A stretch of 64,000 bases of DNA from Candidatus Limnocylindrales bacterium. Its GTDB lineage: Bacteria > Chloroflexota > Limnocylindria > Limnocylindrales > CSP1-4. The DNA lies in the NCBI GenBank assembly GCA_036504355.1, contig DASXVG010000083.1, forward strand, positions 8,902-72,901. The letters are read 5' to 3'. Positions 3,613 to 61,172 of this stretch are shown here, in pieces. The notes under the pieces are model-generated. The model searched no databases, was not told the DNA's origin, and was given only the letters and a program-made list of their open reading frames with translations. The position numbers were made by a program, and so were the translations under genes. Each line of letters begins with the position of its first letter. Within the stretch, counting starts at the first letter, position 1.

Positions 3613-3622
3613 CCAGGCGCGC

Positions 3623-11963: not shown

Positions 11964-11988
11964 GGGCAACCTCGAGTGTGCGGAGGGG

Positions 11989-15077: not shown

Positions 15078-15371
15078 CCGCGAACGTGAAGCGTGCCATA
15101 TCGCGCCCGATCGCGAGCCTCGGTCCGCGACGCGCGGATCCCGGCCGGTCGGACGCTCAGCCGTACGGGGCCGACGACCACACACGACCGGGCTTCGTGC
15201 ACGGCGCGGGCGCGCGACCAGGCCGCTCCCGTGGACGATCCCGGGTCGTTGCTGAACGTGAACCGGGGCGCGCGCGTGGTCACCACGACTGCTGTTCGTT
15301 GCCGGGGCCACTGGCGGATCGGCTGGGGGCTGGCACGACACACCCTCGTAGATGGGATCGGGCGAAGGCGC

Positions 15372-16271
15372 CTATTCGGTCTTGACCGCGTGGCCGCCGA
15401 ACTCGTTGCGCAGGGCCGCGAGCACCTTGGCGCCGTACGAGTCATCCTGGCGAGACCGGAACCGGGTGAGGAGCGAGAGGGTGATGACCGGGGCCGGAAC
15501 GTCCTTGTCGATCGCCTCCTGGACCGTCCAGCGCCCCTCGCCCGAGTCGGCCACCCAGCCCTTGAGATGGGCGAGGTCCTGGCCCTGGCTCTTGAACGCG
15601 CTCGCGGCGAGCTCGAGCAGCCACGACCGGACCACCGAGCCGTGCATCCACATGTCGGAGATCGCGGCGAGGTCCAGCGGGTAGTCGCTCGCGTGCATGA
15701 TCTCGAAGCCCTCGGCATACGCCTGCATCAGGCCGTACTCGATGCCGTTGTGGACCATCTTCACGTAGTGGCCCGCCCCCGGCCCGCCGACGTGCAGGTA
15801 GCCGCCCTCCGGGGCCAGCGAGAGGAACACGGGCTCGAGCGGCTTCACCCACTGCTCGTCGCCGCCGACCATGAGGCAGTAGCCCACCTGGAGACCCCAG
15901 ATCCCGCCCGACGTCCCGGCGTCCACGTACCCGATGCCCTTCTCGGCGAGCAGCTTCTGGCGCCGGACGTCGTCGTGGAAGTTGGTGTTGCCGCCATCGA
16001 TGATCGTGTCGCCTGCCTCCAGGTGCTCGAGCAGCTCCTCGATCTGCGCCTCGGTCGCATCACCCGCGGGGACCATGATCCAGACCGCGCGCGGCTTCTC
16101 GAGCTTGGCGACGAGCTCGGCGATCGTGAACGCCGCATCGGCACCCTCGCCCGCGATCTCCTTCGTCTTCTCCGGCGTCCGGTTGTAGGCGACGATCTCG
16201 TGCCCGTCGCGGAGCAGGCGGCGAACCATGTTCGCGCCCATCCGCCCGAGTCCGATGAAGCCGATGCGCAT
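15372..16271 (-). CDS. gnd: 6-phosphogluconate dehydrogenase (decarboxylating), short form of about 300 aa
   Basis: MRIGFIGLGRMGANMVRRL, ...IDGGNTNFHDD, GTSGGIWG, HYVKMVHNGIEYG. SD GGAGA lies 8 nt upstream of ATG 16271. Confidence 0.9.
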   Translation of the reverse strand: MRIGFIGLGRMGANMVRRLLRDGHEIVAYNRTPEKTKEIAGEGADAAFTIAELVAKLEKPRAVWIMVPAGDATEAQIEELLEHLEAGDTIIDGGNTNFHDDVRRQKLLAEKGIGYVDAGTSGGIWGLQVGYCLMVGGDEQWVKPLEPVFLSLAPEGGYLHVGGPGAGHYVKMVHNGIEYGLMQAYAEGFEIMHASDYPLDLAAISDMWMHGSVVRSWLLELAASAFKSQGQDLAHLKGWVADSGEGRWTVQEAIDKDVPAPVITLSLLTRFRSRQDDSYGAKVLAALRNEFGGHAVKTE

Positions 16272-16572
16272 GGCGGGGATCTCCGTGGGCTGGGGGAGCG
16301 TCGGGATGGTCGGTAGAGCATAGGACCCGGGATCGCGTCTCGTGTTTCGGGATGGTTGCAACCGCTCCTGTCACCGCGGCTCAGGTCCTCCCGGGAGCGG
16401 GCAGGTTCCCGTGGGTGGCCATCAGGCGCTCGAGGGACTCGCCCTCCGGTGGGAGCGCGTCGCGCTGCCCCTGAACCGTCGGCCGAACAGGAGCAACGAC
16501 CCCACGAGGGAGTCCGGTTCGAGCGCCAGGCGCAGCCGCGTGTCGGAGGAACCCGGCTCGACATCGCCCGGG

Positions 16573-17052
16573 TCAGGCGTCCTCGGCCGGACCCATCGAG
16601 TCGGCCTCGATCGCCAGCACCTTGCCCAGCCGGCGGACGTGGCGCGGCTCGCCGGAGAAGCGGGCCGCGAGGAACGCGAGCGAGCACTCCGCGGCGGGCT
16701 CGATGCCGATGACCCGGGCGCCGAGGGTCAGGACGTTCATGTCGTCGTGCTCCACGCCCTGGTGCGCGCTGTACGTGTCGTGGCAGACGGCGGTCCGGAT
16801 CCCGCGCATCTTGTTCGCCGCGACCGAGGCACCCACGCCCGACCCGCAGATCAGGATGCCGCGGTCGGCGCGGCCCTCCTGGATCTCGAGCCCCAGCCGC
16901 TGGGCGAAGTCCGGGTAGTCGTCCTCGGGGTCGGAGCCGTCGCCGCCCAGGTCCTGCAGCTCGTGCTCGCCCGCCGTGAGGCCGGCCAGCTTCGCGATGA
17001 GCTCGTCCTTGAACCGCGCCCCGGCGTGATCGGCGGCGAACGCGACGCGCAT
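16573..17052 (-). CDS. rpiB: Ribose-5-phosphate isomerase B
   Basis: 159 aa: [11 protein letters not shown]..., [33 protein letters not shown] upstream, 14 nt after the tkt stop. Confidence 0.92.
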
Positions 17053-17066
17053 CGTCAGGCTCCTGC

Positions 17067-19208
17067 TCAGTCGTGCCCGGGGTCGCTGGACGGCGTTCGG
17101 CCCGTGCCGGAGTCCCCGGTCCCGAGGGTCGGGTGGTCGCCGTGCGGCAGGCTCAGCGTCTTCTGGCGGCCGTGGAGCCCGTCGCGGACGACCCTGCGGC
17201 CGACGTCGGCGACGCGCTCCGTCGTGAACCCGAACTCCTTGAAAATCGTGCCGGCCGGTGCGCTCGCGCCAAAGTGGTCGATGCCGATGATCGCCCCTTC
17301 ATCGCCGACCCAGCGCTCCCACCCGAGCGAGATCCCCGCCTCGACCGAGACGCGCTTGTTGACCGCCGGTGGCAGGACGCGGTCGCGGTACGCCTGGTCC
17401 TGGGCGTCGAAGCGCTCCCAGCACGGGAGGCTCACGACCCGGGTCGGGATGCCGTCCGCCTCGAGCGCGTCCGCCGCCGTGACGCACAGCTGGAGCTCGG
17501 AGCCGGTCCCGATGAGGATGAGCTGCGGGGTGCCGCCGCCCGCCTCGCGCAGGATGTACCCGCCGCGGCGGACGCCTTCGCGGGCGTGCTCGCTCGTCCC
17601 GGCGAGGGTCGGGAGCTTCTGTCGGGTCAGCGCCAGCGCCACCGGTCCGACGGACGCCCCGGCGATCGCCGGCCGCTCCACCGCGAGCGCCCACGCGGCG
17701 GAGGCTTCGTTCGGGTCGCCCGGGCGCACGAACCACAGGTTGGGGATCGCCCGCAGCGCCGCGTAGTGCTCCACGGGCTGATGCGTGGGCCCGTCCTCGC
17801 CGAGGCCCACGGAGTCGTGGGTCCAGACATACGTGACGTGGAGCCCGGAGAGTGCGGCGAGCCGGACCGACCCGCGCATGTAGTCGCTGAAGGTGAGGAA
17901 TGTCGCCGCGTACGGCAGGAACCCCCCGTGGTACGCGATGCCGTTGACGATGCCGCCCATCGCGTGCTCGCGGACCCCGAACCGGAGGTTGCGCCCGGCG
18001 TGCCCGGCCTCGAAGTGGTCGGGGCCCTTGGCCTTGACGTCGGTGAGGTTGGACTCCGACAGGTCCGCTGACCCGCCGAACAGCTCGGGCAAGGCCGCGG
18101 CGAGGACCTGGATCGCGTCCTGGCTCACGTTGCGGGTCGCGGCCTCCGAGCCCGTGGCGAAGGACGGGAGCCCGGCGTCCCAGCCGTCGGGGAGCCGGCC
18201 GGCGATGCGGCGCCGCAGCTCAGCGGCCTCGGCCGGATAGGCCTCGGCGTAGGCGGCGAGGGCGGTCTCCCACTCGGACACGAGCTCCTTGCCCGCCGGG
18301 ACCGCCCGGAGGAACAGCGCGGCGGCCTCGTCGGGGACGAAGAACGTCTTGTCGGGGTCCCAGCCGTAGGCCTCCTTGGTCAGGCGGACCTCGTCCGGGC
18401 CGAGCGGCGCTCCGTGCGCCTTCTGGGTGCCCTGCTTGTTCGGGGACCCGTAGCCGATGACGGTCCGGACCGCGATGATCGACGGCCGCTCGTCGACCTT
18501 CGCGGCCGCGATGGCGGCGTCGATCGCCGCGACGTCGTTGCCGTCGTCCACGCGCTGGACGTGCCAGCCGTACGCCGCGTACCGCCCCAGGACGTCCTCG
18601 GTGAACGCCCAGGCCGTCGGCCCGTCGAGCTGGATCCGGTTGTCGTCGTACAGCGCGATCAGCTTGCCCAGCTGCAGGTGGCCAGCGAGCGAGCTCGCCT
18701 CCGCGCTGAGGCCCTCCTGGAGGTCGCCGTCGGAGCAGATGACGTACGTGTGGTGGTCGATGAGCTCGTGGCCCTCGCGATTGAACTCCGCGGCCAGCCG
18801 CCGCTCCGCGATCGCCATGCCCACGGCGTTCGTGAGGCCCTGGCCGAGCGGGCCGGTCGTCGCCTCGACACCCGGGGTGAGCCCGTACTCCGGGTGACCC
18901 GGCGTGATCGAGCCCCACTGGCGGAATGACTTCAGGTCGTCGAGGGTGACCCCGTAGCCGGTCAGGTGGAGCATCGAGTACAGGAGCATCGAGGCGTGCC
19001 CGGCGCTGAGCACGAACCGGTCGCGGTTGGGCCAGGCGGGGTTGGTCGGCGCGTGGCGGAGGTGGCGGGTCCACAGCGCATACGTCATCGGCGCCATGCC
19101 CATCGGCGCTCCGGGATGCCCGGAGTTGGCCTGCTGGACGCCATCGATCGAGAGGGTGCGGATCGTGTCGACCGCCAGCTGGTCGAGCTGGTCCGTGGCG
19201 GTTGTCAT
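17067..19208 (-). CDS. tkt: Transketolase
   Basis: [62 protein letters not shown] upstream of ATG 19208. The C-terminal tail is about 30 aa beyond the usual end. Confidence 0.95.
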
Positions 19209-19330
19209 CGCTGTCTCCGGGGTTCGCGGGACGCTGGACGGACCGGCGCGCCGTGCGGTGGCGCGTGCGGCGCGGCGCGTGCGGCCGCGAGCCTCCATCG
19301 TACCGCGCACCGGTCGCTAGACTCAGCGCG

Positions 19331-44158: not shown

Positions 44159-45223
44159 TCAGCTGCCGCCGGCGTCCCTCCGCCGCCCAGGTGCGACGCA
44201 CTCTTCGACCCACAGCGCGAAGGCGAGCCGCCGCTGGCGCTCGGTGGACCCCGAGTCCGGGGCGCCCTTGACCATCGCATCGAGGGCCTGGACGCCCTCG
44301 AGCGCGTCCTCGAGCTCCGCCACCGTCCACGAGCGGGCCTGGTCGGCGAGCTTCTGGGCTCGGAACGGGTGGCCACCGATGGCGGTGACGATGTCCGCCG
44401 GCCGGGCGCGGCGGCTCGTGAGGTCCGCGGCGATGAGCAGCTCCCGCAACCGGCGATGGAGCTGGACGGTGACGACCGGCTCGGGCGTCGTCTCGAGCAG
44501 GCGGTCGAGGGCCGGTGCGGCCATCGCGGTCCGGCGTTCGGCGACGGCGTCGAGAAACGCCCACGTGGAGTCCGGGACGACCTCCGGGACGAGCGCCCTG
44601 ACGTCGTCCTCGCTGACCGGGTCGAACGGGCGGTAGAGCGCGAGCTTGTCGAGCTCGCCCACGGCGAGCACGCCCATCCGCTGGCGGTCGACGTCGCCCT
44701 CGTTGACGAACCCGCCGACGCGCCGGGCGAGCTCCCTGGCGGCGCCGGGCCCGAGCTGCATGTCGCGCTCCGTTGCGCGCGCGACGATCCAGCCCGCGAG
44801 GTCCGACGGCCGCGGCGCCTTGAACGCCCGCGCCTCGCCACCTGCCTTCAGGACCGCGGCCTCGAGCGCGCGGAGCGCCGCGGACCGACGGCTGCCGGCG
44901 TCGCCCTGCTCGACGAACACGAGCGCGTTCCCGGGCGCAACCGTCGCGATGGCCGCCTCGAGCGACTCGCGCTCGGCCTTCGCCCGGAGGAGGGGTGCCG
45001 GGTCCACCACCACGGCGACCGTCCCGCCGCCGAACAGCGGCGTCGTGGCGACTCGCTCGCCGATCGCGGCCGCGCTCGTCTCCGTTCCGGTGACCCGCCA
45101 GCGATCGGGTGGGGCGCCCGTGTCCTGCTCGATCCTTCGGGCGACGAGGGTTGCGGCCCGATCGAGCGCCCAGCCGTCGTCGCCGCGGTAGTACGCGATG
45201 ATCGGGACGTCGCCGCTCATCAC
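44159..45223 (-). CDS. holA: DNA polymerase III subunit delta
   Basis: 354 aa of typical length and layout (...TPLFGGGTVAVVVD..., ...AFKAPRPSDLAGWI..., ...FRAQKLADQARSWT...). Conserved position after comEC. The start GTG/ATG overlaps the HD-gene stop (ATGTGATGA). Confidence 0.85.
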   Translation of the reverse strand: MMSGDVPIIAYYRGDDGWALDRAATLVARRIEQDTGAPPDRWRVTGTETSAAAIGERVATTPLFGGGTVAVVVDPAPLLRAKAERESLEAAIATVAPGNALVFVEQGDAGSRRSAALRALEAAVLKAGGEARAFKAPRPSDLAGWIVARATERDMQLGPGAARELARRVGGFVNEGDVDRQRMGVLAVGELDKLALYRPFDPVSEDDVRALVPEVVPDSTWAFLDAVAERRTAMAAPALDRLLETTPEPVVTVQLHRRLRELLIAADLTSRRARPADIVTAIGGHPFRAQKLADQARSWTVAELEDALEGVQALDAMVKGAPDSGSTERQRRLAFALWVEECVAPGRRRDAGGS

Positions 45224-45858
45224 ATCGCCCCTGCGAGCGCGCGTCGCGACCAGCGGAGCCGGCGGACGTCGCCCGGCGCCACGCGTGCGTCCCGGCAGAC
45301 GCGCTGCTCCAGGTCGCGGGCTCTCGCTTCGACGAGGCCCGCGAGCCCGTCATCCCAGCCTCGACCCATCGGCGCCGTGCCGGCATCTCCCGGTACGGGA
45401 TCGGCGGGCCCGTCCGGGTAGCGCCGGCGCCAGGACGAGAACCGCGCGTCCATCGACTCGAGCCGCTGGCCCGCCCGCTTGTCCGCGTAGGCCACGATCC
45501 GCGCCTCGGGCGACGCGGCCTTCGTCCATGCGGCGCCGTCGGGCTGCGTGAGCCGGGTGACGGGGTGGTCACGGACCACGGGCCCCAGCTCCGGCATCCC
45601 GTGGGCAGCGAGCCAGGCCGCCGAGCCATCGCCGTGGCGCAGGTGGGCCGGGGCCTGCGCCCGGGGAAGCTTGTCCACGTCGTGCAGCAGCGCCGCCGCC
45701 TCGACCAGCGCGACGTCCACCCTGACCCCGCTCTCCGCCGTGCGGGCAGCGAGCCACGCTGCGACGTCGGCGACCGCGCACGCGTGCCCCAGAAACCAGG
45801 CTGGGGGTTCCAGCGAGGTCAGCAGGCGGGCGGCCTCTCGGCGTCCGGGGATCGTCAT
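45220..45858 (-). CDS. HD/HDIG-domain phosphohydrolase
   Basis: 212 aa: H...HD motif (LGHACAVADVAAWLA...AAALLHDVDK), later ...VAYADKR. Confidence 0.8.
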   Translation of the reverse strand: MTIPGRREAARLLTSLEPPAWFLGHACAVADVAAWLAARTAESGVRVDVALVEAAALLHDVDKLPRAQAPAHLRHGDGSAAWLAAHGMPELGPVVRDHPVTRLTQPDGAAWTKAASPEARIVAYADKRAGQRLESMDARFSSWRRRYPDGPADPVPGDAGTAPMGRGWDDGLAGLVEARARDLEQRVCRDARVAPGDVRRLRWSRRALAGAM

Positions 45859-48442
45859 GCCGACGATCGTAGCCGGTGGGCAGGGCCCAGTCTCCCGAGC
45901 CGGCGCCACCGCCGGTCGACGGGCCCGCCAGCGCGTGCACGGAGAGCGCAAGCGGCGAGCCGGCCGGGGTCGGGATCGCGCAGGTGAACGCGGCCGTGCC
46001 ACGCGGTGTCACCGGCGCCGACGCCGTGCGGGCGGTCGCCGTCGGGATCGCCGCCCGTCCGCCCGTCGCCGACACGTGGAGCCCGTCCTCGCCCAGCTCC
46101 ACGGCAACCGATCCGTCCCGGTCCGTCCGATAGACGCGAGCGCCTGCCGCCCGCAGCCGGTCGAGCGTCGGCTTGGCAGGATGCCCGTACGTGTTGCCCG
46201 CGCCCGCGGACGCCACCGCAACCCGCGGGCGCACCGCGTCCACGAACGCCTGGGTCGTCGCCGTGCGGCTGCCGTGATGCGCGACCTTGAGGAGGTCGAC
46301 GTGCGGGAGCCCGCGCGAGAGGAGCCCGGGGTCGATGCCCTCCTCGACGTCGCCCATCAGGAGGAACCGCCGGCCGTTCGCCTCGCCGAGGAGCACGATG
46401 GAGACGTTGTTGATCCCGGTGCCGGTATCCGGCGGATCGAGCGGGACCGTCCCCGGGTCGGGCCACAGGACGGACATCGACACCTCTCCGAGGCGCAGGC
46501 GGGCACCCGTCGCGAGCAGTCCGTGCGGCGGCCCGTCGCGCAGCTCGGCGTGCCATGCGGCCCAGCCCGGTCCCGGCCCCCGCATCCCGGGCTCGTAGAT
46601 GCGACCGATCGTGTATCGCTCGAGGATCCGTGCGAGTCCGGCGACGTGGTCCTCGTGCGGGTGCGTCAGGATCACGACGTCGAGCCGTCGATCCCATGGC
46701 GGGATGCGCTCGTCGAGGGTGACGAGGATCCGATCGGGGTCAGGTCCACCGTCGACGAGCATCCGTGCGCCGGTCCGAGTCTCGAGGAGGATCGCGTCCC
46801 CCTGGCCGACGTCGAGCACGGTGATGCGAGTCGTCCGCCCCGCAGCATCACCGAGTCCGGCAACGCAGATCGCGACCAGGACCGACGCCGCGACGAGCGC
46901 GGCGCGGTGGCGGGGCGACAGGACGGGCACGCCGCGCGTGCGGGGGGTCGTGGCCGGCGGCCGTGGCCCGGGCGACGACCTTGGCCCTGTGCGCCCACGA
47001 CGCAGGGCGTGCATCGCCGACGGCGTGGCGAGGAGCGCGACGGCCGCGGCGATTGCGAGCGGCTGCGCGGCGCCCGGCGGGAGCGTCACCGCGGCGAACG
47101 GGACCGACGCCCCGGCCCGGACGATCGCGATGATCACGTGGAGCACGAGCCAGCCGGGCAGGCCCGCGAGCGTCGCGACCACCGGCGGAAGGCCGAGCGA
47201 GCCGGCTGCACCGCCGACGAGCGCAAGGACGCCGCCCGCCATGGCGACCGGGACGAGCGGCACCACCGCGAGGTTGACGACGGGGGACACGATGGACAGC
47301 CGGCCGAACGTCGCGAGGACGTCGGGCAGGGTCGCCGCCTGGGCCGCGAGCGAGATCCCGAGGCTCTCGGCCAGCCAGCGTGGCACGCGTCCGCCCGCGC
47401 GTCGTCCGATCCAGGCGCCCAGCGGGTTCGCCCATGCGAGCAGGCCCGCCGTCGCGAGGACCGACAGCCGGAACCCGGCGTCGCCGATGAGCGCCGGGTC
47501 GATCAGGAGCAGGATTGCCGCGGCCGCGCCAAGGGCGGCAGCCGCCCGCCCCGCCCGTCCCGACTCCCGCGCCAGGAGGACGACGCCGGCCATCACCGCC
47601 GCCCGGACGACCGACGGCGAGCCACCGGCCGCCACGACGTACGCCACGACTGTCCCGAGGACGACGATCGTGACGACCCGGCGCGGCCGGCCGCGCAGCG
47701 CCGCGCCGACGAGTGCGGCGACGATCGCGATGTTCCAGCCCGAGATCGCGACGACGTGGCTCACGCCCGCAGTCGAGAAGTCCGCGGCAAGGCTTCGGTC
47801 GACCCGCTCCCGCAGGCCGATGAGGATCCCGGCTGCGAGCCCGGCCTCCGGCTCCGGCAGGGCGAGGCGGAGGGCATCACCCGCGCCGTCGCGGGCCGCC
47901 TGGAGTGAGAACACGGGTGGCTCGAGGACGCGCAGCGAGCATGCATCGAGCGAGCCGGAGGCGCCTGTCCGCCGGAGATACTCGCCGTAGGGATCGTCCT
48001 CGGGCGGTGGACGGAGCCGGCCGTCGACCTCCACGACCGCTCCCGCAGCCACGGCCGGGTACGCGGGCAGGGTCGCCGCAACGACGACCTCGCCGGTCTC
48101 TCCCTCGAGGCGGACCCGGACGACCTGCTTGCCGTCGCGCGGAGCGCCCAGCGACTCGATGATGCCTGTCCACGGCCCGCCGTCGACGGGGAGTGGTGGC
48201 GGCGGTGCAGCACCCGGTCCGAGCAGCACGCGCACGCCAACGAGCAGGGCACCGATGCCGCCGGCGAGCATTGAGGCCCGCCTGCCGTGGCCGAGTCGTG
48301 ACCCGAGCCCAGTGGCCACTGCCACCGTCACCAGCCCTGCGACGAGCACCGGCAGCGGGCCCGTGCCGGCGCTCGAGAAGCTTGCGCCAGCCGCGGCCCC
48401 GACCGCGACCCAGGCGGCCCGCGGCCACCTTGCGCCGCTCAT
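45569..48442 (-). CDS. comEC: DNA internalization-related competence protein ComEC/Rec2 (the ORF formally reads 290 nt into the HD gene)
   Basis: Polytopic competence domain plus MBL domain (VLDVGQGDAILLE, VILTHPHEDHVAGL, LKVAHHGS...). ATG overlaps the comEA stop (ATGA). The first in-frame stop is only at 45569. See the finding. Confidence 0.88.
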   Translation of the reverse strand: MSGARWPRAAWVAVGAAAGASFSSAGTGPLPVLVAGLVTVAVATGLGSRLGHGRRASMLAGGIGALLVGVRVLLGPGAAPPPPLPVDGGPWTGIIESLGAPRDGKQVVRVRLEGETGEVVVAATLPAYPAVAAGAVVEVDGRLRPPPEDDPYGEYLRRTGASGSLDACSLRVLEPPVFSLQAARDGAGDALRLALPEPEAGLAAGILIGLRERVDRSLAADFSTAGVSHVVAISGWNIAIVAALVGAALRGRPRRVVTIVVLGTVVAYVVAAGGSPSVVRAAVMAGVVLLARESGRAGRAAAALGAAAAILLLIDPALIGDAGFRLSVLATAGLLAWANPLGAWIGRRAGGRVPRWLAESLGISLAAQAATLPDVLATFGRLSIVSPVVNLAVVPLVPVAMAGGVLALVGGAAGSLGLPPVVATLAGLPGWLVLHVIIAIVRAGASVPFAAVTLPPGAAQPLAIAAAVALLATPSAMHALRRGRTGPRSSPGPRPPATTPRTRGVPVLSPRHRAALVAASVLVAICVAGLGDAAGRTTRITVLDVGQGDAILLETRTGARMLVDGGPDPDRILVTLDERIPPWDRRLDVVILTHPHEDHVAGLARILERYTIGRIYEPGMRGPGPGWAAWHAELRDGPPHGLLATGARLRLGEVSMSVLWPDPGTVPLDPPDTGTGINNVSIVLLGEANGRRFLLMGDVEEGIDPGLLSRGLPHVDLLKVAHHGSRTATTQAFVDAVRPRVAVASAGAGNTYGHPAKPTLDRLRAAGARVYRTDRDGSVAVELGEDGLHVSATGGRAAIPTATARTASAPVTPRGTAAFTCAIPTPAGSPLALSVHALAGPSTGGGAGSGDWALPTGYDRRHDDPRTPRGRPPADLAGTPSLVSGARVRGRRRRSVARCPHGGERGQGGRRAGRGGGAAARRGQASPGAGPGPPAPRRWLGGLARCPRDAGAGARGP

Positions 48443-49137
48443 GGCCCGACGCTGACGAGCGCCCGGATCTTCTCGAGCGTGGCCGGGCCGACGACCTTGC
48501 GCGTGCCGAGGTCATCGACGGACGAGAACCGCTGCTCCTCGCGCGCGGCGATGATCTTGGCGGCGGTCGCCGGCCCGATCCCGGGCAGCGTGTCGAGCGC
48601 CTCGGCGGTGGCTGTGTTGAGATCGATCGCGCCCGATGTCCCGCCGCCGCCCGATGTCCCCGCGCCGGACCCGCCGCTCCCGGTCGCGGTCTCGCCGCGT
48701 GCAGGCACGTGGATCTCGTCGCCGTCCTTCAGCGGGGCGGCAAGGTTCAGCCGGGAGTCCGCGAGCACGGCGTCGACCCGGGGCCCGAACCCGCCGGCGG
48801 CCGTCACGGCGTCCAGGATCCGCGACCCGCCCGGCAAGCGGTAGACGCCCGGGTGGACGACCGCGCCTCCGACCTCGACGACGAGCATCGTGGCGGCCGC
48901 CGCGCCACCGGGCTGGCTCGCGCCCGGCAGGTCGCCGCTCGAGCCCGTGGCACCATCGATCTCGACCGCCGGATCGGGCCGCAGTCCGAGCAACAGAGCC
49001 GAGGCGCCGATGACGAGCGCGATGAGCAGGGCTCCGATTGCGACCCAGGGGAGGTCGCGCGGGGCGGCCTCGGACGCATCGCCTGGACGTTCGGGATCGG
49101 CATCGACGACGCGCCACGGCGCGCTGGACGGCTCCAC
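48439..49137 (-). CDS. comEA: ComEA family DNA-binding protein (SLBB plus helix-hairpin-helix)
   Basis: TM anchor, SLBB (VHPGVYRLPGGSRILDAVTAAGG) and C-terminal HhH (IDLNTATAEALDTLPGIGPATAAKIIAARE). Confidence 0.9.
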   Translation of the reverse strand: MEPSSAPWRVVDADPERPGDASEAAPRDLPWVAIGALLIALVIGASALLLGLRPDPAVEIDGATGSSGDLPGASQPGGAAAATMLVVEVGGAVVHPGVYRLPGGSRILDAVTAAGGFGPRVDAVLADSRLNLAAPLKDGDEIHVPARGETATGSGGSGAGTSGGGGTSGAIDLNTATAEALDTLPGIGPATAAKIIAAREEQRFSSVDDLGTRKVVGPATLEKIRALVSVGP

Positions 49138-53755: not shown

Positions 53756-56428
53756 CTACCCGCGCAGGACGATGTTGACGAGCCTGCCGCCGCCCGCGTG
53801 GATGACCCGCGCGACGTGCGCGTCGCCGATCGCCGCCACAACCTTGTCCCGGCTCATGACGATCTGCTCCAGCTCGATCTCGCTGATGCCCACCGGGACC
53901 GTGATCCGGTCGCGCAGCTTGCCATTGACCTGGATCGGCACCTCGCGCGTCTGCTCCACGATGGCGCGCTCGTCGACCTCCGGCCAGCGCTGGACGTGGA
54001 TCGATTCCCACGGCTCCCCGCGGGCCGCGAGCCGTCGCGACCACAGCTCCTCGGTGATGTGTGGCGCGGACGGCGCCAGCATCAGGAGCAGCAGCCGGAC
54101 GGCCTCGTCCCACTCGGGCAGCTCGGTGATCGCCGTGCCGCGGTACCGGAACAGCGTGTTCGACAGCTCCATGAGCTTCGCGACCATCGTGTTCCAGCGG
54201 AAGCCCTCGATGTCCTCCGTGACGTCGCGCAGCGCGCGGTGGGTGGCCGCGCGGACGTGATCGCGGGCCGCGGCCTCGTCCTCGCCCTCGGGCAGCTCGC
54301 CCGAGGCCGGGTCGCCGGGCTCGCGGCCGGCGGGATCCAGCGCGATCGTCCACACGCGCGAGAGAAAGCGGGCCACGCCGCCGATGCCCGTCGGGCTCCA
54401 CGGCCCGCCCTGGTCCCACGGCCCCATGAACATCAGGTACAGCCGCACCGTGTCCGCACCGTAGCGCGCCACGAGCTCGTCCGGGTCCTGCACGTTGCCG
54501 CGGGACTTGGACATCCGCTCGCCGTCGGCGCCCAGGATCTGGCCCTGGTTGAACAGCCGTCGGAACGGCTCGCTCTCGTCCACCAGGCCCAGGTCGCGCA
54601 TCGCCTTGGTGAAGAAGCGGCTGTACAGCAGGTGCATCACCGCGTGCTCGGCACCGCCCGTGTACTGGTTGACCGGCGTCCACCTGTGGACCATCTCGCT
54701 GTCGACCGGTCCATCGTCCTTCCCAGGAGACAGGTAGCGGAACCAGTACCAGGAGCTGTCGATGAACGTGTCCAGCGTGTCCGTCTCGCGGCGTGCCGGG
54801 CCGCCGCAGCGTGGGCAGGCGACGTTGAGGAACGCGTCGTCCCGGTTGAGCGGGTTCTCGCCGCTGCCGCGGTAGTCCACGGTGTCCGGCAGCAGGACCG
54901 GCAGGTCCTCCTCCGGGACCGGCACGGCACCGTCGATCGGGCAATGGACGACCGGGATCGGCGTCCCCCAGTAGCGCTGGCGGCTCACCAGCCAGTCGCG
55001 CAGCCGATAGGTCACGGCCTGGCGGCCCAGCCCACGCTCCGCGAGGTCCGCGACGATGCCGTGCCACGCGTCGACCGCGGGCTTGCCGTCCCACGGCCCG
55101 GAATTGACGAGCACGAGCCTGCCCGCGCTGTCGCTTCCCATGTTGATCAGCTCGATGTCGCCCAGCGGGCCATCGTGGCGGCCGGTGCCCCGCGGCGCCT
55201 CGTCCGCGGCCTTGTCCACGAACGCCTCGGTCAGGGGCTCGTCCGGGTCGCTGTCGCGGGGCGCGATGACGCGCACGATCGGGAGGCCGAACGTCGTCGC
55301 GAACGCGAAGTCGCGCTCGTCGTGGGCGGGGACGGCCATGATCGCCCCCGTGCCGTACGTCCCCAGCACGTAATCGGCGATGAAGATCGGGATGCGCGCG
55401 CCGTTGACGGGGTTGATCGCGTCCGCGCCGATCGGCACGCCGGTCTTCTCGCGGTCCGCGGACAGGCGGTCGATCTCGGTCTTGTCCGCGGCCGCCTTGA
55501 CGTACGCCTCGACATCGGCCGTGCGATCCGGGGCGGTCAGCTCGGCGACGAGCGGGTGCTCCGGCGCGAGGACCATGAACGTCGCCCCGTACAGTGTGTC
55601 CGGGCGGGTCGTGAACACCCGCAGCTCGCTGCCGCCGGGGTGGTGCGCCGCGGGTGCCGTCGAGAACACGATCTCGGCGCCCGTGGATCGGCCGATCCAG
55701 TTCGTCTGCTGGATCCGGATGGGCTCCGGCCAGTCGATGCCCGAGAAGTCCAGCAGCTCGTCCGCGTAGCGGGTGGTTCGCAGGTACCACTGGGCGAGCT
55801 CGCGCTTCTCGACCTTTGCGCCACAGCGCCAGCAGTGGCGGTCCGCGCCCTCGACCTGTTCGCGCGCCAGCGTCCCGTCGTTGGGACACCAGTCGACCGG
55901 CGAGACCGCGCGGTAGGCGAGGCCATGCTCGAGGAAGCGCAGGAACAGCCACTGGTTCCAGCGGTAGTAGGACGGGTCGCAGGTCACGACCTCGGCAGTC
56001 CAGTCCCAGCCGGCGCCCATCGTCCGCAGCTGGCTGCGCATCGTCGCGATGTTGGCCATCGTCCAGTCGCGCGGGTTGATCCGGTTCTTGATCGCCGCGT
56101 TCTCGGCCGGCAGGCCGAACGCGTCGAACCCGATCGGCTGGAAGACGTTGTCGCCGCGCATCCGGTGATAGCGCCCGATGGCGTCGGTGGGCGTCTTGAC
56201 GTACCAGTGCCCGATGTGGAGCGACCCGGAGGGGTAGTCGTACATCGTGAGCAGGTAGAACCGGGGCCTCGACTCGTCGTCCAGGTCGGCCTCGTAGAGC
56301 CGGAGCTCGTCCCAGCGCGCCTGCCACTTCGGCTCGATGGCCGACGGGTCGTAGCGCTCCGCCCGGGAGCGGGGCTCCCGGGCGCCGTCGCTGGTCGTGC
56401 TGTCGCTCGTCGTCACTGCTGGCCCCAT
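53756..56428 (-). CDS. leuS: Leucine--tRNA ligase
   Basis: YDPSAIEPKWQARW, HIGH motif (PSGSLHIGHW), KMSKS motif (ERMSKSRGN). The ATG 56428 was chosen because the upstream TTG (56446) lies inside the terminator T-tract. Confidence 0.96.
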   Translation of the reverse strand: MGPAVTTSDSTTSDGAREPRSRAERYDPSAIEPKWQARWDELRLYEADLDDESRPRFYLLTMYDYPSGSLHIGHWYVKTPTDAIGRYHRMRGDNVFQPIGFDAFGLPAENAAIKNRINPRDWTMANIATMRSQLRTMGAGWDWTAEVVTCDPSYYRWNQWLFLRFLEHGLAYRAVSPVDWCPNDGTLAREQVEGADRHCWRCGAKVEKRELAQWYLRTTRYADELLDFSGIDWPEPIRIQQTNWIGRSTGAEIVFSTAPAAHHPGGSELRVFTTRPDTLYGATFMVLAPEHPLVAELTAPDRTADVEAYVKAAADKTEIDRLSADREKTGVPIGADAINPVNGARIPIFIADYVLGTYGTGAIMAVPAHDERDFAFATTFGLPIVRVIAPRDSDPDEPLTEAFVDKAADEAPRGTGRHDGPLGDIELINMGSDSAGRLVLVNSGPWDGKPAVDAWHGIVADLAERGLGRQAVTYRLRDWLVSRQRYWGTPIPVVHCPIDGAVPVPEEDLPVLLPDTVDYRGSGENPLNRDDAFLNVACPRCGGPARRETDTLDTFIDSSWYWFRYLSPGKDDGPVDSEMVHRWTPVNQYTGGAEHAVMHLLYSRFFTKAMRDLGLVDESEPFRRLFNQGQILGADGERMSKSRGNVQDPDELVARYGADTVRLYLMFMGPWDQGGPWSPTGIGGVARFLSRVWTIALDPAGREPGDPASGELPEGEDEAAARDHVRAATHRALRDVTEDIEGFRWNTMVAKLMELSNTLFRYRGTAITELPEWDEAVRLLLLMLAPSAPHITEELWSRRLAARGEPWESIHVQRWPEVDERAIVEQTREVPIQVNGKLRDRITVPVGISEIELEQIVMSRDKVVAAIGDAHVARVIHAGGGRLVNIVLRG

Positions 56429-56440
56429 TCCCTGCGAATG

Positions 56441-56472
56441 AAACAAAACCCCTCGCCGGTCCCGGCGAGGGG
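56441..56472 (-). terminator. Intrinsic terminator: perfect 11-bp GC stem (CCCCTCGCCGG/CCGGCGAGGGG), 2-nt loop, then TTTTGTTT on the minus strand
   Basis: Read directly. Lies 27 nt downstream of the tRNA-Ala 3' end. Confidence 0.75.
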
Positions 56473-56498: not shown

Positions 56499-56574
56499 TG
56501 GTGGAGCTAAAGGGATTCGAACCCTTGACCTTCTGAATGCCATTCAGACGCTCTCCCAGCTGAGCTATAGCCCC
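56499..56574 (-). tRNA. tRNA-Ala (anticodon GGC), CCA encoded
   Basis: Folded by hand: GGGGCTA acceptor stem with the G3:U70 alanine identity pair, D arm GCTC/GAGC, anticodon stem TCTGA/TCAGA with loop ATGGCAT, T arm AAGGG-TTCGAAT-CCCTT, 3' ACCA. 76 nt. Confidence 0.95.
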
Positions 56575-56906
56575 ACGCCGGACCGGGAGTATAGCGCACG
56601 AAACCGCGATGGCTGTGGCCCCGGAACCAGGTTTCCCCAGCGAACCGGGAGCTCGTCCACGCGGGGATCGGCGTGCTGCCAGGGCGATCCCGAATGCCGC
56701 CGCGGTGCGCGGGCGCCCCTATCCGTTCAGGCTCCCACGACACCGGCCGTCCCCGGACCCCCCATCTCCGACAGGACCTCCGGTGCCCCCGCGCACCCAC
56801 CTTGCAGGACCCCCGTACTATGCTCGGGCTGCCGACGGTGCGTCATCAGGCGACGGTCCCGCGGCGCGCCCGGTCGGGGCACTCGGGGATCCGGGGAGGT
56901 TGAGGC

Positions 56907-58703
56907 ATGTCGCTGACGCAGCGGGTCGAGCGGGCCCAGCAGGCCCTGTCGGGCGAGCCGGTGCCGCCTGGCGCCATGGTGCCCGCGCCCCCGCCGCCGA
57001 GCGCGAGGGGCCTCACCCAGCGCGAGGAGCTCCTGCGCGACCTGCGGATCGCCATGCTGGCCGAGATCGTGCGAGCGTTCGATGCGATCCTCGACGCGCC
57101 ACCGGACGAGATCAAGCCCCGCATCGAGAGCCTCGCTGACCGGGTCATCTCGCAGCAGGGAGCGGCCGTCACCCGCGACGAGCGCCAGCTCCTGGTCCAG
57201 CAGCTCCTCGACGAGGTCCGTGGCTTCGGCCCCATCGAGCCGTTCCTCAACGACGAGACCGTGACCGAGGTCATGGTCAACGGGCCCCAGCACATCTACA
57301 TCGAGCGGGGCGGCAAGATCCAGCGCGTCGACAGCGTGTTCCTCAACGACGAGCACGTGCTGCGGATCATCGACCGGATCATCACGCCGCTGGGCCGGCG
57401 CATCGACGAGACGAGCCCCCGGGTCGACGCCCGCCTCCCCGACGGCTCGCGCGTCAACGCCATCATCGAGCCGCTGTCGCTCATCGGGCCCGTCATCACG
57501 ATCCGCAAGTTCGCGGCGCGCCCGTTCACCGTCGAGGACCTGGTCCGGTTCGGCACGGCCTCGCCGGAGATGTTCGACTTCCTGCGGGCGTGCATCGAGG
57601 CCCGCCTCAACGTGTTCGTCTCGGGCGGCACGGGATCCGGCAAGACGACGACCCTCAACGTGCTGTCGTCGTTCATCCCCAACGGCGAGCGGATCGTCAC
57701 GATCGAGGACGCGGCCGAGCTCCAGCTTCGCCAGGACCACGTGCTGACCCTGGAGGCGCGACCGGCGAACCTCGAGGGCGAGGGCGAGATCACGATCCGG
57801 GACCTGCTGCGCAACGCGATGCACATGCGGCCCGACCGGATCATCGTCGGCGAGTGCCGGTCGGGCGAGGCGCTGGACATGCTCCAGGCCATGACCACGG
57901 GCCACGACGGATCCCTCTCGACGGGCCATGCGAACAGCCCCAACGACATGCTCCGCCGCCTCGAGACCATGGTGCTCATGACGGGCTACCAGATGCCGCT
58001 CCGCGCGATCCGGGAGCAGATCGCTTCGGCCGTGGACATCATCGTCCACACGGCGCGTCTCAAGGACGGCTCCCGGCGGATCACGAACATCACGGAGGTC
58101 TACGGGATCGAGGATGACGACATCCTGACCCAGGACGTGTTCACGTTCGAGCAGACGGGCTTCAGCGAGGGGAAGATCCAGGGCGACCTGCGGCCGACCG
58201 GCATCCGCCCGACCTTCATGGACCAGTTCAAGGTCAACGGCGTCGAGCTCCCGCCCGGTGACTTCGGCATCCCCCAGGTTGCCCCGGCGACCCAGCGCAC
58301 GATCAAGCCGATGAAGTCCCGCTGGGGCGGCGACGGCGCGAACACCGCCGGCGAGCTGCCGCGGGGGACGGGCCGCGTGGTCGCCGCGGGCGGGATGGTC
58401 TACATCACGACGGTGGGACCCGTGGACCTCGAGACCGGTGCCGTCGTCAGCCCGGCCCTCAACATCCAGGTGACGCAGTGCCTGCGCAACCTCAAGGCGC
58501 TCCTGGAGCAGCACGGCAGCTCGCTCGACAAGGTGGTGTGGGCGAACTGGTGCCTCCGGGACCAGGCGGACTTTGACGCCTTCAGCAACGAATGGAACAA
58601 GTGGTTCCCGGGTGACGCGCCGATCGGGCAGGGCACGCTGATGCCGGCCCTCCAGCGGCGCGCCGGGTTCCGTGCGTCCATCGGGGTCATCGCCCAGCAG
58701 TAG
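56907..58703 (+). CDS. CpaF/TadA-type secretion ATPase fused in frame to a C-terminal RidA/YjgF-like domain
   Basis: SD GGGGAGG. VTEVMVNGP, Walker A GGTGSGKTT, TIEDAAEL, RPDRIIVGECRSGEA, TGHDGSLSTGHAN. From about codon 470: GGMVYITTVGPVDLETGAVV...QVTQCLRNLKALLEQHGSSLDKVVWANWCLRD..DFDAFSNEW. Confidence 0.88.
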   Translation: MSLTQRVERAQQALSGEPVPPGAMVPAPPPPSARGLTQREELLRDLRIAMLAEIVRAFDAILDAPPDEIKPRIESLADRVISQQGAAVTRDERQLLVQQLLDEVRGFGPIEPFLNDETVTEVMVNGPQHIYIERGGKIQRVDSVFLNDEHVLRIIDRIITPLGRRIDETSPRVDARLPDGSRVNAIIEPLSLIGPVITIRKFAARPFTVEDLVRFGTASPEMFDFLRACIEARLNVFVSGGTGSGKTTTLNVLSSFIPNGERIVTIEDAAELQLRQDHVLTLEARPANLEGEGEITIRDLLRNAMHMRPDRIIVGECRSGEALDMLQAMTTGHDGSLSTGHANSPNDMLRRLETMVLMTGYQMPLRAIREQIASAVDIIVHTARLKDGSRRITNITEVYGIEDDDILTQDVFTFEQTGFSEGKIQGDLRPTGIRPTFMDQFKVNGVELPPGDFGIPQVAPATQRTIKPMKSRWGGDGANTAGELPRGTGRVVAAGGMVYITTVGPVDLETGAVVSPALNIQVTQCLRNLKALLEQHGSSLDKVVWANWCLRDQADFDAFSNEWNKWFPGDAPIGQGTLMPALQRRAGFRASIGVIAQQ

Positions 58704-58740: not shown

Positions 58741-60366
58741 ATGGCCTTCGACCTCGTCCTGCGCAACGGCAGCCTCGCGGAGGGGTCCGGCGCGCCCCTC
58801 CGACCCCTGGACGTCGGCGTGACGGGCGATCGGATCACGGCGGTGGGGGACCTGTCCGCGGTCGACGGTGCCGAGGCGGCAGTCGTGCTCGACGTGCGCG
58901 GCCTCGTGGTCGCGCCCGGATTCGTGGACCCGCACGGGCACTCCGACGGCAACGTGCTCGTGGACGGGGCGCTCGCGAGCCACCTCCACCAGGGCTACAC
59001 GACCCAGCTCTCGGGCAACTGCGGGTTCACGCTCGCACCGTTCAACGACCGATCCGGGCCCGGCATCCAGCCGGACCTCGAGCCGCTCGGGCTGCACCCG
59101 GACTGGCGCACGTTCGGGGAGTATCTCGATGCCGTGGACGCGGTCGCCCTCGGGCCGAACGTGGCGTTCCTCGTGGGCCACGGGACGGTCCGCGGGGCGG
59201 TCCTCGGCCCCGCCGGCAGGGCGCCCGACGACGCGGAGCTTGCCGCCATGGTCGGGTACGTGGACGAGGCGATGGACGCGGGCGCGATCGGCCTCTCGAG
59301 CGGGCTGATCTATGCGCCCGGGATCCACGGCTCCCCCGACGAGGTGGCGACGCTCGTTGCGGCCGCCTACCGGCGCGACGGGCTGTACGCGACCCACATG
59401 CGCAACGAGTCGGACGGGGTGCACGGGGCCATCGAAGAGGCCATCGCGACGGCGCGGCGGGGCGGGCAGCTGGCCGGGCGCCCGGGGAGGCTCCAGGTCT
59501 CGCACCTCAAGGCAGGCGCCCGCTCCGTGTGGGGCCAGGGCCCGGCCCTCGTCGAACGGATCGAGCGGGCGCGCGCCGAGGGTCTCGATGCCGCCGCGGA
59601 CCAGTACCCGTACACGGCCGCCTCCACGACCCTCGCGACGATGCTCCCGCCCGAGCTTCTCGCCCTCGATCCCGAGGACGCGGCCATCGCCCTGCGCGAC
59701 ACGGCGACACGGGTCCGCGTCCGCCAGCTCCAGGCGAGCGGGATCAGCGGCTGGGAGAACGTCGCCCGGGACCCGGGCTGGGATGGGGTCGTCATCGCCC
59801 GGAGCACGTCGCGATCGGCGTGGAGCGGCCGGAGCCTCGGGGCGCTGGCCGACGAGCTGCGTGCGGACCCCATCGACCTCGCGCTCGACGTGCTGGCCGA
59901 CGACCGGCTCGCCGTCGACATCGTGCTCCACTGCATGGACGAGGCCGACGTCGAGGCGATCATGGCGATCCCGTGGATCGCCGTGTGCACGGACGCAGGC
60001 GGCCGTCGTCCGGGCCACCCGCTCCTCGACGAGGGCGTGCCCCACCCGCGCGCCTACGGGACCACCGCCCGCGTCCTCGGGCGGTACGTGCGCGAGCGGG
60101 GCGTCCTCGGGCTCGAAACGGCCGTCGCGAAGCTGAGCGCCGTCCCAGCGGCGCGGCTCGGGCTCGCGGACAGGGGCCAGGTCCGCGTGGGCTGGGCCGC
60201 AGACCTCGTCGTGTTCGACCCGCAGACGGTGATCGACACGGCGGCGTACCAGTCGCCCGCCCGCTTCGCCACGGGCATCGCGCACGTCGTCGTCAACGGG
60301 CGGCTCGCCATCCGCGACGGTGTCGAGACCGGCGACCGGCCGGGCCGGCTCCTGCGGCGCGCCTGA
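58741..60366 (+). CDS. N-acyl-D-amino-acid deacylase (D-aminoacylase) family amidohydrolase
   Basis: GFVDPHGHSDG, GYTTQLSGNCGFTLAP, ...YATHMRNE..., ...DLVVFDP. TACGAT-7 nt-ATG start context. Confidence 0.88.
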   Translation: MAFDLVLRNGSLAEGSGAPLRPLDVGVTGDRITAVGDLSAVDGAEAAVVLDVRGLVVAPGFVDPHGHSDGNVLVDGALASHLHQGYTTQLSGNCGFTLAPFNDRSGPGIQPDLEPLGLHPDWRTFGEYLDAVDAVALGPNVAFLVGHGTVRGAVLGPAGRAPDDAELAAMVGYVDEAMDAGAIGLSSGLIYAPGIHGSPDEVATLVAAAYRRDGLYATHMRNESDGVHGAIEEAIATARRGGQLAGRPGRLQVSHLKAGARSVWGQGPALVERIERARAEGLDAAADQYPYTAASTTLATMLPPELLALDPEDAAIALRDTATRVRVRQLQASGISGWENVARDPGWDGVVIARSTSRSAWSGRSLGALADELRADPIDLALDVLADDRLAVDIVLHCMDEADVEAIMAIPWIAVCTDAGGRRPGHPLLDEGVPHPRAYGTTARVLGRYVRERGVLGLETAVAKLSAVPAARLGLADRGQVRVGWAADLVVFDPQTVIDTAAYQSPARFATGIAHVVVNGRLAIRDGVETGDRPGRLLRRA

Positions 60367-60371
60367 AGCGC

Positions 60372-61172
60372 ATGGCGACGGCCCAGGGATCGCGGCTCTT
60401 GGTCGAGGAGACCGTCGCAGTGGCACGGCTCCCGGGCGGCAACCTGCCGTATGTCCTTCGCCGCTCCCCGAGGGCCCGCCGGCTGCGGGTGACCGTGCAC
60501 CCGGAGCGCGGGGTCGTCGTGTCGCTGCCCATCGCCGCGAGACGCGGGTGGGGGCGGCCCGATGCGCTCGTCGACCGCTTCCTCGCCGAGCGCGAGGACT
60601 GGATCCGCGGCCACCTCGATCGCCAGCAGGCGACCCGGGCGCGGCTGGATGACCGCCCCCACGTCGATGACGAGCGGCTCGTGCCGTACCTCGGCGAGCC
60701 GCACCGCGTGCGGGTCGTGCCGGCTCCGCAGGGCGTGCGGGCGACGCGCGTGTCCCGGGTGGGAGCCGAGGAGGGCGACGAGCTGCTGGTCGAGCGCGGC
60801 GCCCGGGACCGGCGGGAGACGGCCGAGGTCCTCGAGGCGTGGTTCCGCGCCCGCGCCCGCGCCGCCCTCGACGAGTCGATCGCGCGACACGCACCGGCGC
60901 TGGGCGTCATCCCGCGGAGCATCACGATCCGCGACACGACCTCGCGCTGGGGGAGCTGCTCGCGCCGCGGCGCGCTCTCGTTCAGCTGGAGGCTGATCCT
61001 GGCGCCGCCTGCCGCGCTCGATGCGGTCGCCGCCCACGAGCTGTGTCATCTCCGCGTGTTCGGGCATTCGCCCGCGTTCTGGGGGCTGCTCGAGACGCAC
61101 GTCCCGGACCACGCGGCGTGGCGCCGGTGGCTGCGGGGCCACGCGCCGGAGCTGCATGCGGCGCTCGACTGA
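60372..61172 (+). CDS. YgjP-like (DUF45/M48-related) zinc metallopeptidase
   Basis: ...RWGSCS..G.LSFSWRLILAP...AHELCHL (HExxH), with the typical C-terminal position. Confidence 0.85.
   Translation: MATAQGSRLLVEETVAVARLPGGNLPYVLRRSPRARRLRVTVHPERGVVVSLPIAARRGWGRPDALVDRFLAEREDWIRGHLDRQQATRARLDDRPHVDDERLVPYLGEPHRVRVVPAPQGVRATRVSRVGAEEGDELLVERGARDRRETAEVLEAWFRARARAALDESIARHAPALGVIPRSITIRDTTSRWGSCSRRGALSFSWRLILAPPAALDAVAAHELCHLRVFGHSPAFWGLLETHVPDHAAWRRWLRGHAPELHAALD

Follow-up and report, generated by a model that had tools for sequence, protein, structure and literature searches.

Does an open reading frame (ORF) of 598 codons in a Chloroflexota genome encode a genuine fusion of a pilus motor with a domain of the Rid/YjgF fold, and what could such a protein do? 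The ORF is located on a 64,000-nucleotide stretch of contig DASXVG010000083.1 (Candidatus Limnocylindrales bacterium, assembly GCA_036504355.1), the whole of which is called the window here. Limnocylindria (formerly Ellin6529/CSP1-4) are a soil and freshwater class of Chloroflexota reported to be abundant in soils, and CpaF is the single motor for both extension and retraction of Tad pili. An earlier note, made from the letters of the window, had described the ORF as a complete CpaF/TadA-type ATPase that runs in frame and without a stop into a RidA-like extension. We found that the fusion is a real, vertically maintained, lineage-specific CpaF/TadA variant throughout Limnocylindria. As to its function we tentatively favor a Tad-type pilus motor that would carry a non-catalytic Rid module on its C-terminal face.

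As read from the sequence, the 598-aa (amino acid) ORF occupied a single frame without an internal stop. The layout of the gene was as follows, with AF2 denoting AlphaFold2 models.

56907..58703 (+): whole fusion gene, 598 codons plus stop, encoding a CpaF-type ATPase, a linker and a Rid-like domain.
56893..56899 (+): Shine-Dalgarno sequence GGGGAGG, 7 nucleotides before the ATG of the fusion gene, read from the sequence.
56907..57020 (+): N-terminal helix MSL(L/T)QRVERAQQ (aa 1-14), then a variable proline-rich segment (aa 15-38), delimited by conservation and AF2.
57021..57221 (+): three-helix-bundle (3HB) region, aa 39-105, the C-terminal part of which aligns with the 3HB of CpaF.
57222..57551 (+): N-terminal domain (NTD), aa 106-215, with loop-8 residues G163, R164, R165 and D167 and arginine fingers R176 and R182, assigned by alignment to CpaF.
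57552..58106 (+): C-terminal ATPase domain (CAD), aa 216-400, with Walker A GGTGSGKT (57624-57647), Asp box E271, pore-loop residues E290/G293, Walker B E316 and His box H341.
57822..57824 (+): codon of His306, by alignment the position of the inter-subunit arginine finger (R347 of Caulobacter crescentus CpaF).
58107..58277 (+): CpaF C-terminal motif, aa 401-457, with the last residues LPPG(D/E)FGIP; the natural end of CpaF falls about here.
58278..58364 (+): linker, aa 458-486, of variable sequence and fixed length, containing a non-conserved ATG at 58311.
58365..58700 (+): Rid/YjgF-fold domain, aa 487-598, with motifs VVWANW, P(I/V)GQ.T.M and QRRAGF, assigned by PF01042, PDB sequence matches, AF2 and Foldseek.
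58626..58628 (+): codon of Gly574, by alignment to PDB entry 2csl the position of the catalytic Arg105 of RidA.

The G+C content of the ORF was 0.96 at the third and 0.44 at the second codon position in a window of 72% G+C, a pattern which indicates that the ORF behaves as a real gene of this genome. Start codon and Shine-Dalgarno sequence recurred among the 45 loci with full 5' ends of the fusion gene that served for comparison of leaders, GGGGA being present in 20 of them against 2.3 expected. In a Pfam search, as the earlier note had proposed, both domains scored above their gathering thresholds: T2SSE (PF00437) matched aa 105-384 with 207.6 bits (E=2.8e-61; gathering score 24.9) and Ribonuc_L-PSP (PF01042) matched aa 491-572 with 46.6 bits, or 48.8 bits for the region alone (gathering score 27.3).

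A protein identical to the product of the ORF was already public (P0001, labelled Candidatus Limnocylindrales). More than 120 protein clusters of about 600 aa and 68-100% identity shared the fusion architecture, and PF00437 and PF01042 were both listed for 118 clusters, the exceptions being P0023 and P0026. P0023, the top-ranked match without a Rid domain, was rejected as a relative of the fusion, as it is a different protein, a tandem double-ATPase of another system. P0026 left the frame briefly where the Rid domain begins (alignment columns 601-650) and then returned to it, and PF01042 was not reported for it; two sequencing errors that compensate each other probably account for the slip. 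In a search of GTDB species-representative genomes (one per species) 341 stretches encoded relatives of the linker and Rid domain, and hundreds of species-level Limnocylindria genomes encode them. The comparisons of junctions and neighborhoods below rest on the best 80 of these 341 stretches, nearly all from metagenome-assembled genomes (MAGs) of Limnocylindria/Chloroflexota. Three loci carried odd labels (Pseudonocardiales, Verrucomicrobiia and Anaerolineaceae) and are most simply taken as mis-binned contigs. Viral carriage of the fusion gene was not found. Two MAGs had two fused copies each on different contigs, MFD05513.bin.2.203 (L035, L052) and MFD02416.bin.1.133 (L032, L085), which could be due to paralogy within the class or to strain mixture in the bins.

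Could an error of assembly or sequencing have joined two adjacent genes, or could a free-standing RidA be translated from the ATG at 58311? Some public annotations seem to speak for this. With the C-terminal 150 aa as a query we retrieved many short proteins of 113-255 aa named 'RidA'. In some public records a 'RidA family protein' of 113-162 aa is annotated at this place, and for several Limnocylindrales MAGs it has 113-156 aa, with no gene over the preceding 1.7 kb (L005 6001-6342, L006 6001-6393; P0123, P0202, P0160, P0162). The annotated start of P0123 on L006 even corresponded to the same internal ATG as 58311. Yet all four of the short proteins that were checked had to be rejected as free-standing or split forms, being frameshifted assemblies or internal-start annotation calls. 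L003 and L004 were frameshifted assemblies in which leuS or PfkB was broken too, while in L005 and L006 the ORF was open in one frame for 597 residues and the deposited annotation began at an internal codon. Thus, systematic mis-annotation from internal codons hides the fusion. The ATG at 58311 (M469) indeed had no Shine-Dalgarno sequence, as the earlier note had remarked, and the position was Leu in 41 and Met in 23 of the 89 sequences of the fused-family alignment in which all residue conservation was counted.

The junction itself was examined by tblastn of the full protein against the 80 loci. In 68 of them a single high-scoring segment pair extended through both the ATPase and the Rid domain, up to the end of the latter. 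In six loci a contig end truncated the gene with the junction still continuous, and in another six, all MFD-named MAG assemblies, the frame changed at scattered positions within the ATPase. No stop or frameshift between the ATPase and Rid domains was detected by tblastn in any of the 80 loci, and across loci and clusters the orthologues were uniformly fused and not encoded by two separate genes. The in-frame fusion described in the earlier note was therefore borne out, and an artefact, to which we give next to no probability, is already refuted. Furthermore, Nei-Gojobori analysis of 67 fused genes gave ratios of nonsynonymous to synonymous substitutions (dN/dS) that rose from 0.17 in the core over the Rid domain (0.25) and the C-terminal motif (0.38) to 0.79 in the linker; these are usable as a ranking only, because dS is compressed by extreme codon bias. 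By this measure the Rid domain is under purifying selection and not decaying.

The ATPase half was compared with C. crescentus CpaF (PDB 8RKD, 8RJF, 9E24-9E29). The match scored 400 bits and had no gaps, with residues 74-447 of the query facing 36-411 of 423, and the alignment stopped 11-12 residues short of the ends of the solved CpaF chains. Residue numbers of the window's protein are those of C. crescentus minus 41. The best NCBIfam model was the TadA family TIGR03819 with 326.7 bits, below its curated cut-off of 373.15. Every motif that the earlier note had quoted for a complete CpaF/TadA-type ATPase was present, and the 3HB-NTD-CAD body was collinear with that of CpaF, including Walker A and B and the Asp and His boxes. 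The 3HB region aligned with that of C. crescentus CpaF from residues 72/74 onward; AF2 predicted helices at 33-105 and dN/dS was 0.68. Ahead of it, column conservation was 0.82 for the N-terminal helix and 0.46 for the proline-rich segment. AF2 placed a helix at residues 3-14 with a predicted local distance difference test (pLDDT) below 50 for residues 15-32.

Nucleotide-binding residues, platform-contact residues and the role of R347 have been defined for C. crescentus CpaF (Yen et al., PMC12019362). The nucleotide-binding residues K246, T247, E271, E316, H341, R176, R182 and D174 of the fusion were invariant in the 89 sequences, and so were the predicted platform-contact residues G163, R164, R165 and D167 of loop 8 (GRRxD) and E290 and G293 of the pore loop. 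R217/R223, G204, R205, R206, D208, E331 and G334 of C. crescentus CpaF thus all had their match. R347, the inter-subunit arginine finger that touches the γ-phosphate of ATP, was an exception. Its conservation is reported for all ATPases of type IV filaments, and twitching requires the equivalent residue of PilT (PMC12019362). The fusion, by contrast, had His306 at this position, a His in 89/89 fused proteins. Arg was present in the nearest unfused relatives on locus L087 (see below), in solved CpaF and in 2oap and 6bge, an archaeal GspE-like and a VirB11-like protein. The replacement is absent from the earlier note and was found in this analysis; it suggests that ATP turnover may be retuned. 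A second difference from CpaF concerned R387, with K/R in 71/89 members at this position, Lys in most and Asn in the window's protein. In fold, in sequence and in most residues that define the group, the protein is a CpaF-type ATPase; its R347 finger departs from it.

The loss of the arginine finger in 89/89 proteins brings up the main rival explanation, which we consider possible but less probable than a Tad-type motor: a CpaF-derived, repurposed stand-alone ATPase without a role in pili, acting as an ATP-dependent switch or machine alone or with non-Tad partners. The Rid trimer would then provide oligomerisation or ligand sensing and the His finger would slow down hydrolysis. The two genomes with two fused copies each would agree with such a role. 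Yet the six predicted platform-contact residues are invariant, the core has a dN/dS of 0.17, and most members retain the C-terminal motif as well as Lys or Arg where CpaF has R387, all of which argues against this explanation.

The nearest relatives point to a pilus motor, too. The closest unfused ATPases that we found were 67-72% identical over the core and were encoded on L087, a contig of 61% G+C with the operon order TadZ-like fragment, tandem double CpaF, CpaF and T2SSF; TadB homologues carried Chloroflexi/Anaerolineae names. Because the nearest unfused relatives reside in a tad operon, the fused gene descends from an ordinary Chloroflexota tad motor, and the operon context of these relatives speaks against a repurposed ATPase. 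The unfused proteins of L087 shared the C-terminal motif ending in LPP(E/D)xF with the fusion. They differed in that they stop about 6 residues past LPP(E/D)xF, keep the arginine finger (LRMRPDR) and are part of a tad operon. C. crescentus CpaF likewise is encoded in a cpa/tad operon, whereas the fusion gene is encoded alone and its product has 150 extra residues past the CpaF end, made up of linker and Rid domain. L087 itself encodes a 919-aa double CpaF (631-3390), a 460-aa CpaF (3480-4862) and the T2SSF protein (4913-5806), that is three ATPase domains in one tad operon.

Has such an architecture been described? Yen et al. (2025, PMC12019362) sorted CpaF proteins into class I, which lacks an intrinsically disordered region (IDR), class II, which has an IDR at the N-terminus, and class III, in which an N-terminal FHA domain is combined with an IDR. 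Their survey, the latest on CpaF architectures, covered 292 CpaF orthologues with AlphaFold DB entries (PMC12019362), a set that was not checked for membership of Limnocylindria. The fusion resembles these classes in that its 3HB-NTD-CAD core is unchanged and bears an accessory region, and it has a short disordered N-terminal segment as well. Yet in the survey variation is N-terminal only and a class with a folded C-terminal domain is missing (PMC12019362), while the added domain of the fusion is C-terminal. The searchable literature yielded neither an account of a T2SSE-Rid architecture, in keeping with the earlier note, nor anything usable on pili in Limnocylindria, CSP1-4, Ellin6529 or Edaphomicrobia. 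In databases the fused proteins are annotated merely as 'pilus assembly protein CpaF' or 'ATPase, T2SS/T4P/T4SS family'. What would be new is the T2SSE-Rid architecture as a described combination; the proteins themselves were already known from databases.

The appended part starts with a linker, the length of which was held at 29-32 residues with a sequence conservation of only 0.53. It included the invariant residues K470 and R472 in a motif K.RWGG, and its pLDDT was below 50 in both AF2 models. By contrast, an AF2 model of the Rid domain, computed from a 58-sequence alignment, had a pLDDT above 90 across most of the domain. The top 50 Foldseek matches of this model were Rid/YjgF-family entries only, including YabJ (5yu2) and RidA (5hp7); the best had a root-mean-square deviation of 1.3-1.7 Å over about 108 residues and a target-normalised template-modelling score of up to 0.93. 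A PDB sequence search of the region also retrieved YjgF/RidA proteins. Thus, sequence and predicted fold agree in a significant Rid match of the C-terminal residues.

Assignment to the deaminases is a different matter. Against the RidA model TIGR00004 the region scored 37-39 bits (cut-off 106.25) and against RutC 30-32 bits (cut-off 169.1). In the alignment to Thermus TTHA0137 (2csl) the fusion had 'PIG' opposite 'PAR'. The position of RidA Arg105 was Gly574, a Gly in 89/89 sequences. RidA Glu120 aligned with Ser591 (Ser/Thr in 87/89), Glu122 with Gly593 and Tyr17 with a variable position of the fused family. The residue numbers used here (Arg105, Glu120, Tyr17) are those of E. coli RidA, and the numbering was self-consistent. 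The catalytic Arg is essential for imine hydrolysis, and Rid subfamilies without it 'presumably serve other functions' (Niehaus et al., PMC4433059). Because this Arg is replaced by Gly in 89/89, the domain should not be read as an active RidA deaminase. Of the RidA/YjgF-like extension proposed in the earlier note the Rid fold has stood, whereas the deaminase Arg is absent; the domain is a member of the Rid fold family outside the RidA deaminase subfamily.

The genes around the fusion gene bear on the possibility that the Rid domain is catalytically active nonetheless. The flanks that the earlier note had reported, tRNA-Ala/leuS on one side and a D-aminoacylase-like gene on the other, were found as follows.

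53756-56446 (-): leuS, upstream, beyond tRNA-Ala.
56499..56574 (-): tRNA-Ala(GGC), upstream neighbor on the opposite strand.
58741-60366 (+): Amidohydro_3 gene, the D-aminoacylase-like neighbor, 38 nucleotides downstream of the fusion gene.
60372-61172 (+): YgjP-like gene, downstream of the Amidohydro_3 gene.

No terminator-like site was present between the fusion gene and the downstream Amidohydro_3 and YgjP-like genes. One might think of metabolic coupling, with the Rid domain as an active deaminase of enamines/imines or a related enzyme that is tethered to the ATPase and may cooperate with two hydrolases encoded downstream, the amidohydrolase and the YgjP-like protein. Such a reading could invoke the intact Rid fold under purifying selection, the invariant Arg pair R584 and R585 close to the former active-site region and the 38-nucleotide spacing to the Amidohydro_3 gene. 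It is nevertheless unlikely, considering the Gly at the Arg105 position in every member, the variable Tyr17 position, Ser/Thr in place of Glu120 and scores far under the curated cut-offs of RidA (37 vs 106 bits) and RutC (30 vs 169 bits). Moreover, neighborhoods varied: among the 80 loci leuS was upstream in 22, a YgjP-like gene was downstream in about 29 and an amidohydrolase in just about 12. Because its synteny is limited to about 12/80 loci, the D-aminoacylase-like neighbor gives no functional clue. Clustering of ORFs from the 80 loci yielded RNase PH, Ham1, MazG, LytR-CpsA-Psr, AraC, glyoxalase and an adenylate cyclase-STAND protein as other recurrent neighbors, and enolase was also among the housekeeping neighbors of fusion genes. 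With variable neighborhoods and no pilus gene among the recurrent clusters, neighbors were rejected as a functional clue in general.

How did the Rid domain come to lack its Arg? The nearest free-standing Rid relatives were proteins of about 125 aa with 40-45% identity which share the signature 'EW.KWFP' and have 'PPARQG' where the fusion has 'P(I/V)GQG'. Since these relatives keep the Arg, it was seemingly lost in the fused lineage, inside an Arg-bearing clade. The fusion resembles Rid4-Rid7 in having a Rid fold without the essential Arg and a presumed non-deaminase function, but in Rid4 and Rid7 the Arg position is Trp, in Rid5 and Rid6 it is variable and all four keep the Glu, while the fusion has an invariant Gly and Ser/Thr (Niehaus et al. 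2015, PMC4433059). From these alignments the loss of Arg looks like a separate and recent event confined to the fused form. Proteins of the Rid family are homotrimers with ligand clefts between the subunits (PMC4433059); trimer formation of the Rid domain is assumed here from the family. Some of the nearer relatives of the Rid module (P0262, P0268, P0276 and others) had a length of about 400 aa and contained three Rid domains in tandem. They represent the covalently linked '3x-RidA' trimers known from earlier work (Niehaus et al. 2015, PMC4433059).

What would a Rid module do at the C-terminus of a CpaF-type ATPase? According to a proposal of Whitfield et al., CpaF engages the platform by its N-terminal face for extension and by its C-terminal face for retraction (preprint, bioRxiv 10.64898/2026.02.24.707734). 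With a C-terminal CpaF-mCherry fusion pili still extend, yet no retraction was observed, and CpaF R387A likewise has pili without visible retraction (bioRxiv 10.64898/2026.02.24.707734). The Rid fusion and CpaF-mCherry are alike in carrying a folded domain at the C-terminus of CpaF, on the proposed retraction face. Unlike CpaF-mCherry it is natural, ancient and conserved, its domain family normally trimerises, its tether has a fixed length and its active site is changed.

In the Tad-type motor that we tentatively favor, a flexible tether of fixed length after the natural CpaF end would hold the Rid domains, six per hexamer. These six might assemble into two trimers on the C-terminal (retraction) face, where the module could occlude or gate the face and/or clamp the hexamer, biasing the motor to one mode. 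The clefts between the subunits, devoid of catalysis, would serve as sensors, possibly of a small ligand, and the His finger would retune the ATP cycle alongside the Rid module. What the data show is the fusion with its conservation, the fold, the lost residues and the orphan context; we infer the trimers, their placement on the retraction face, any influence on the direction or activity of the motor and a platform partner from another locus. A more specific form, which we regard as rather improbable, is a ligand-responsive gate in which two pseudo-enzyme trimers on 30-residue tethers dock and release by metabolite and so permit engagement for retraction conditionally. If true, the gate would be a natural, class-wide and metabolite-controlled direction switch for a single-motor pilus, combined with a His-finger ATPase cycle.

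The Rid fusion may be seen as a natural counterpart of the CpaF-mCherry experiment which bears directly on the hexamer-inversion model of direction switching. The combination is surprising and testable against this current model of motor reversal, although its function is still inferred. A test would show whether a major uncultured soil lineage makes extend-only pili or pili with regulated retraction, and a function for an arginine-less Rid domain would follow from it. If, on the other hand, the lineage were without platform genes, the fusion would show, in a documented case, how a type IV filament motor has taken on a new task.

We therefore looked for pilus partners. A Pfam scan of the whole 64 kb, with ORFs picked by G+C at the third codon position, gave no T2SSF, prepilin peptidase, TadE, CpaB or secretin, whereas Flp pilins are too short to be excluded in this way. 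A TadB profile was built from 120 TadB homologues and searched against six-frame translations of the window and of 1.39 Mb of fetched loci, which are nearly all Limnocylindria flanks. It had no match in the window, and neither T2SSF nor a second T2SSE was present in the Limnocylindria flanks or the window; the extra matches were the genes of L087 itself. The absence of tad genes near the fusion, as claimed in the earlier note, was thus upheld apart from Flp. P0242, the most divergent full-length fused member, was again encoded alone amid housekeeping genes. The fusion gene is an orphan in every context examined.

Several points have to be set against a Tad-type motor. No gene for TadB/C, Flp, prepilin peptidase or TadZ turned up in the 64-kb window or, in 80+ loci, at a distance of up to about 10 kb from the fusion gene, and a search for TadB homologues seeded with the T2SSF protein of L087 gave named matches to Chloroflexi/Anaerolineae only. 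The arginine finger, reported as Arg in all type IV filament ATPases, is His, and with a His finger the protein may not be a processive motor at all. The inversion model of CpaF rests on a preprint. The full-length AF2 model was poor (mean pLDDT 65) and did not dock the Rid domain on the ATPase. Finally, column conservation of the C-terminal motif (aa 401-457) was 0.83, and such a kept motif together with a basic R387 position is not obviously expected of a permanently blocked, unused face.

The orphan gene, always amid housekeeping genes, and the lack of T2SSF or a second T2SSE in the 1.39 Mb of loci would also be in line with a repurposed stand-alone ATPase. However, many bacteria have their type IV filament genes dispersed over the genome, and orphan status is weak evidence for that reason. 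Tad-type motor function remains the reading that we tentatively prefer.

Other genes of the window encode a photolyase, CorA, citrate synthase, CTP synthase, Rho and Obg next to a pentose-phosphate cluster and the products of holA, comEC and comEA. The last three form a DNA-uptake cluster 8-11 kb upstream of the fusion gene.

44159-45223 (-): holA.
45569-48442 (-): comEC (Competence and Lactamase_B domains).
48439-49137 (-): comEA (SLBB and HHH_3 domains).

Their presence in the window allows for a motor of natural transformation, in which the fused ATPase would drive a Tad-like or Com-like DNA-uptake filament together with ComEA/ComEC. There is precedent in two sources, one of which cites Tad pili as implicated in transformation of Micrococcus luteus (PMC12019362) while the other links Tad pili to DNA uptake in Liberibacter (PMC8513845). 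We regard this as very unlikely, since unrelated genes on both strands separate the com cluster from the fusion gene and retraction is needed for transformation, which a blocked C-terminal face would hinder. An arrangement of comEA, comEC and holA is moreover a common housekeeping cluster in other bacteria.

A few observations on the surroundings of the gene were made in addition. In about 10 loci a protein of about 950-1180 aa with adenylate/guanylate cyclase, AAA/NB-ARC and TPR domains (STAND-type) was encoded a few genes from the fusion gene, often adjacent to it, e.g. on L068 at 2345-5197 (cluster c16). The window contains a compact oxidative pentose-phosphate cluster at 11139-19310 (-) with 6-phosphogluconolactonase, OpcA, glucose-6-phosphate dehydrogenase, a 6-phosphogluconate dehydrogenase-like protein, RpiB and transketolase. 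An Rfam scan of the 330-nucleotide leader of the fusion gene gave the tRNA only and no riboswitch. In 12-13 of the 45 leaders compared (2-3.5 expected) an element (G)TCACG occurred at about -28 to -33 from the ATG, at a fixed distance 5' of the Shine-Dalgarno sequence (L018, L041, L072, L085, L045, L020, L055, L059, L062, L053, L043, L083). It is not present in the leader of the window's fusion gene. The genomic contexts of these loci differ, and the element may be a promoter or operator element.

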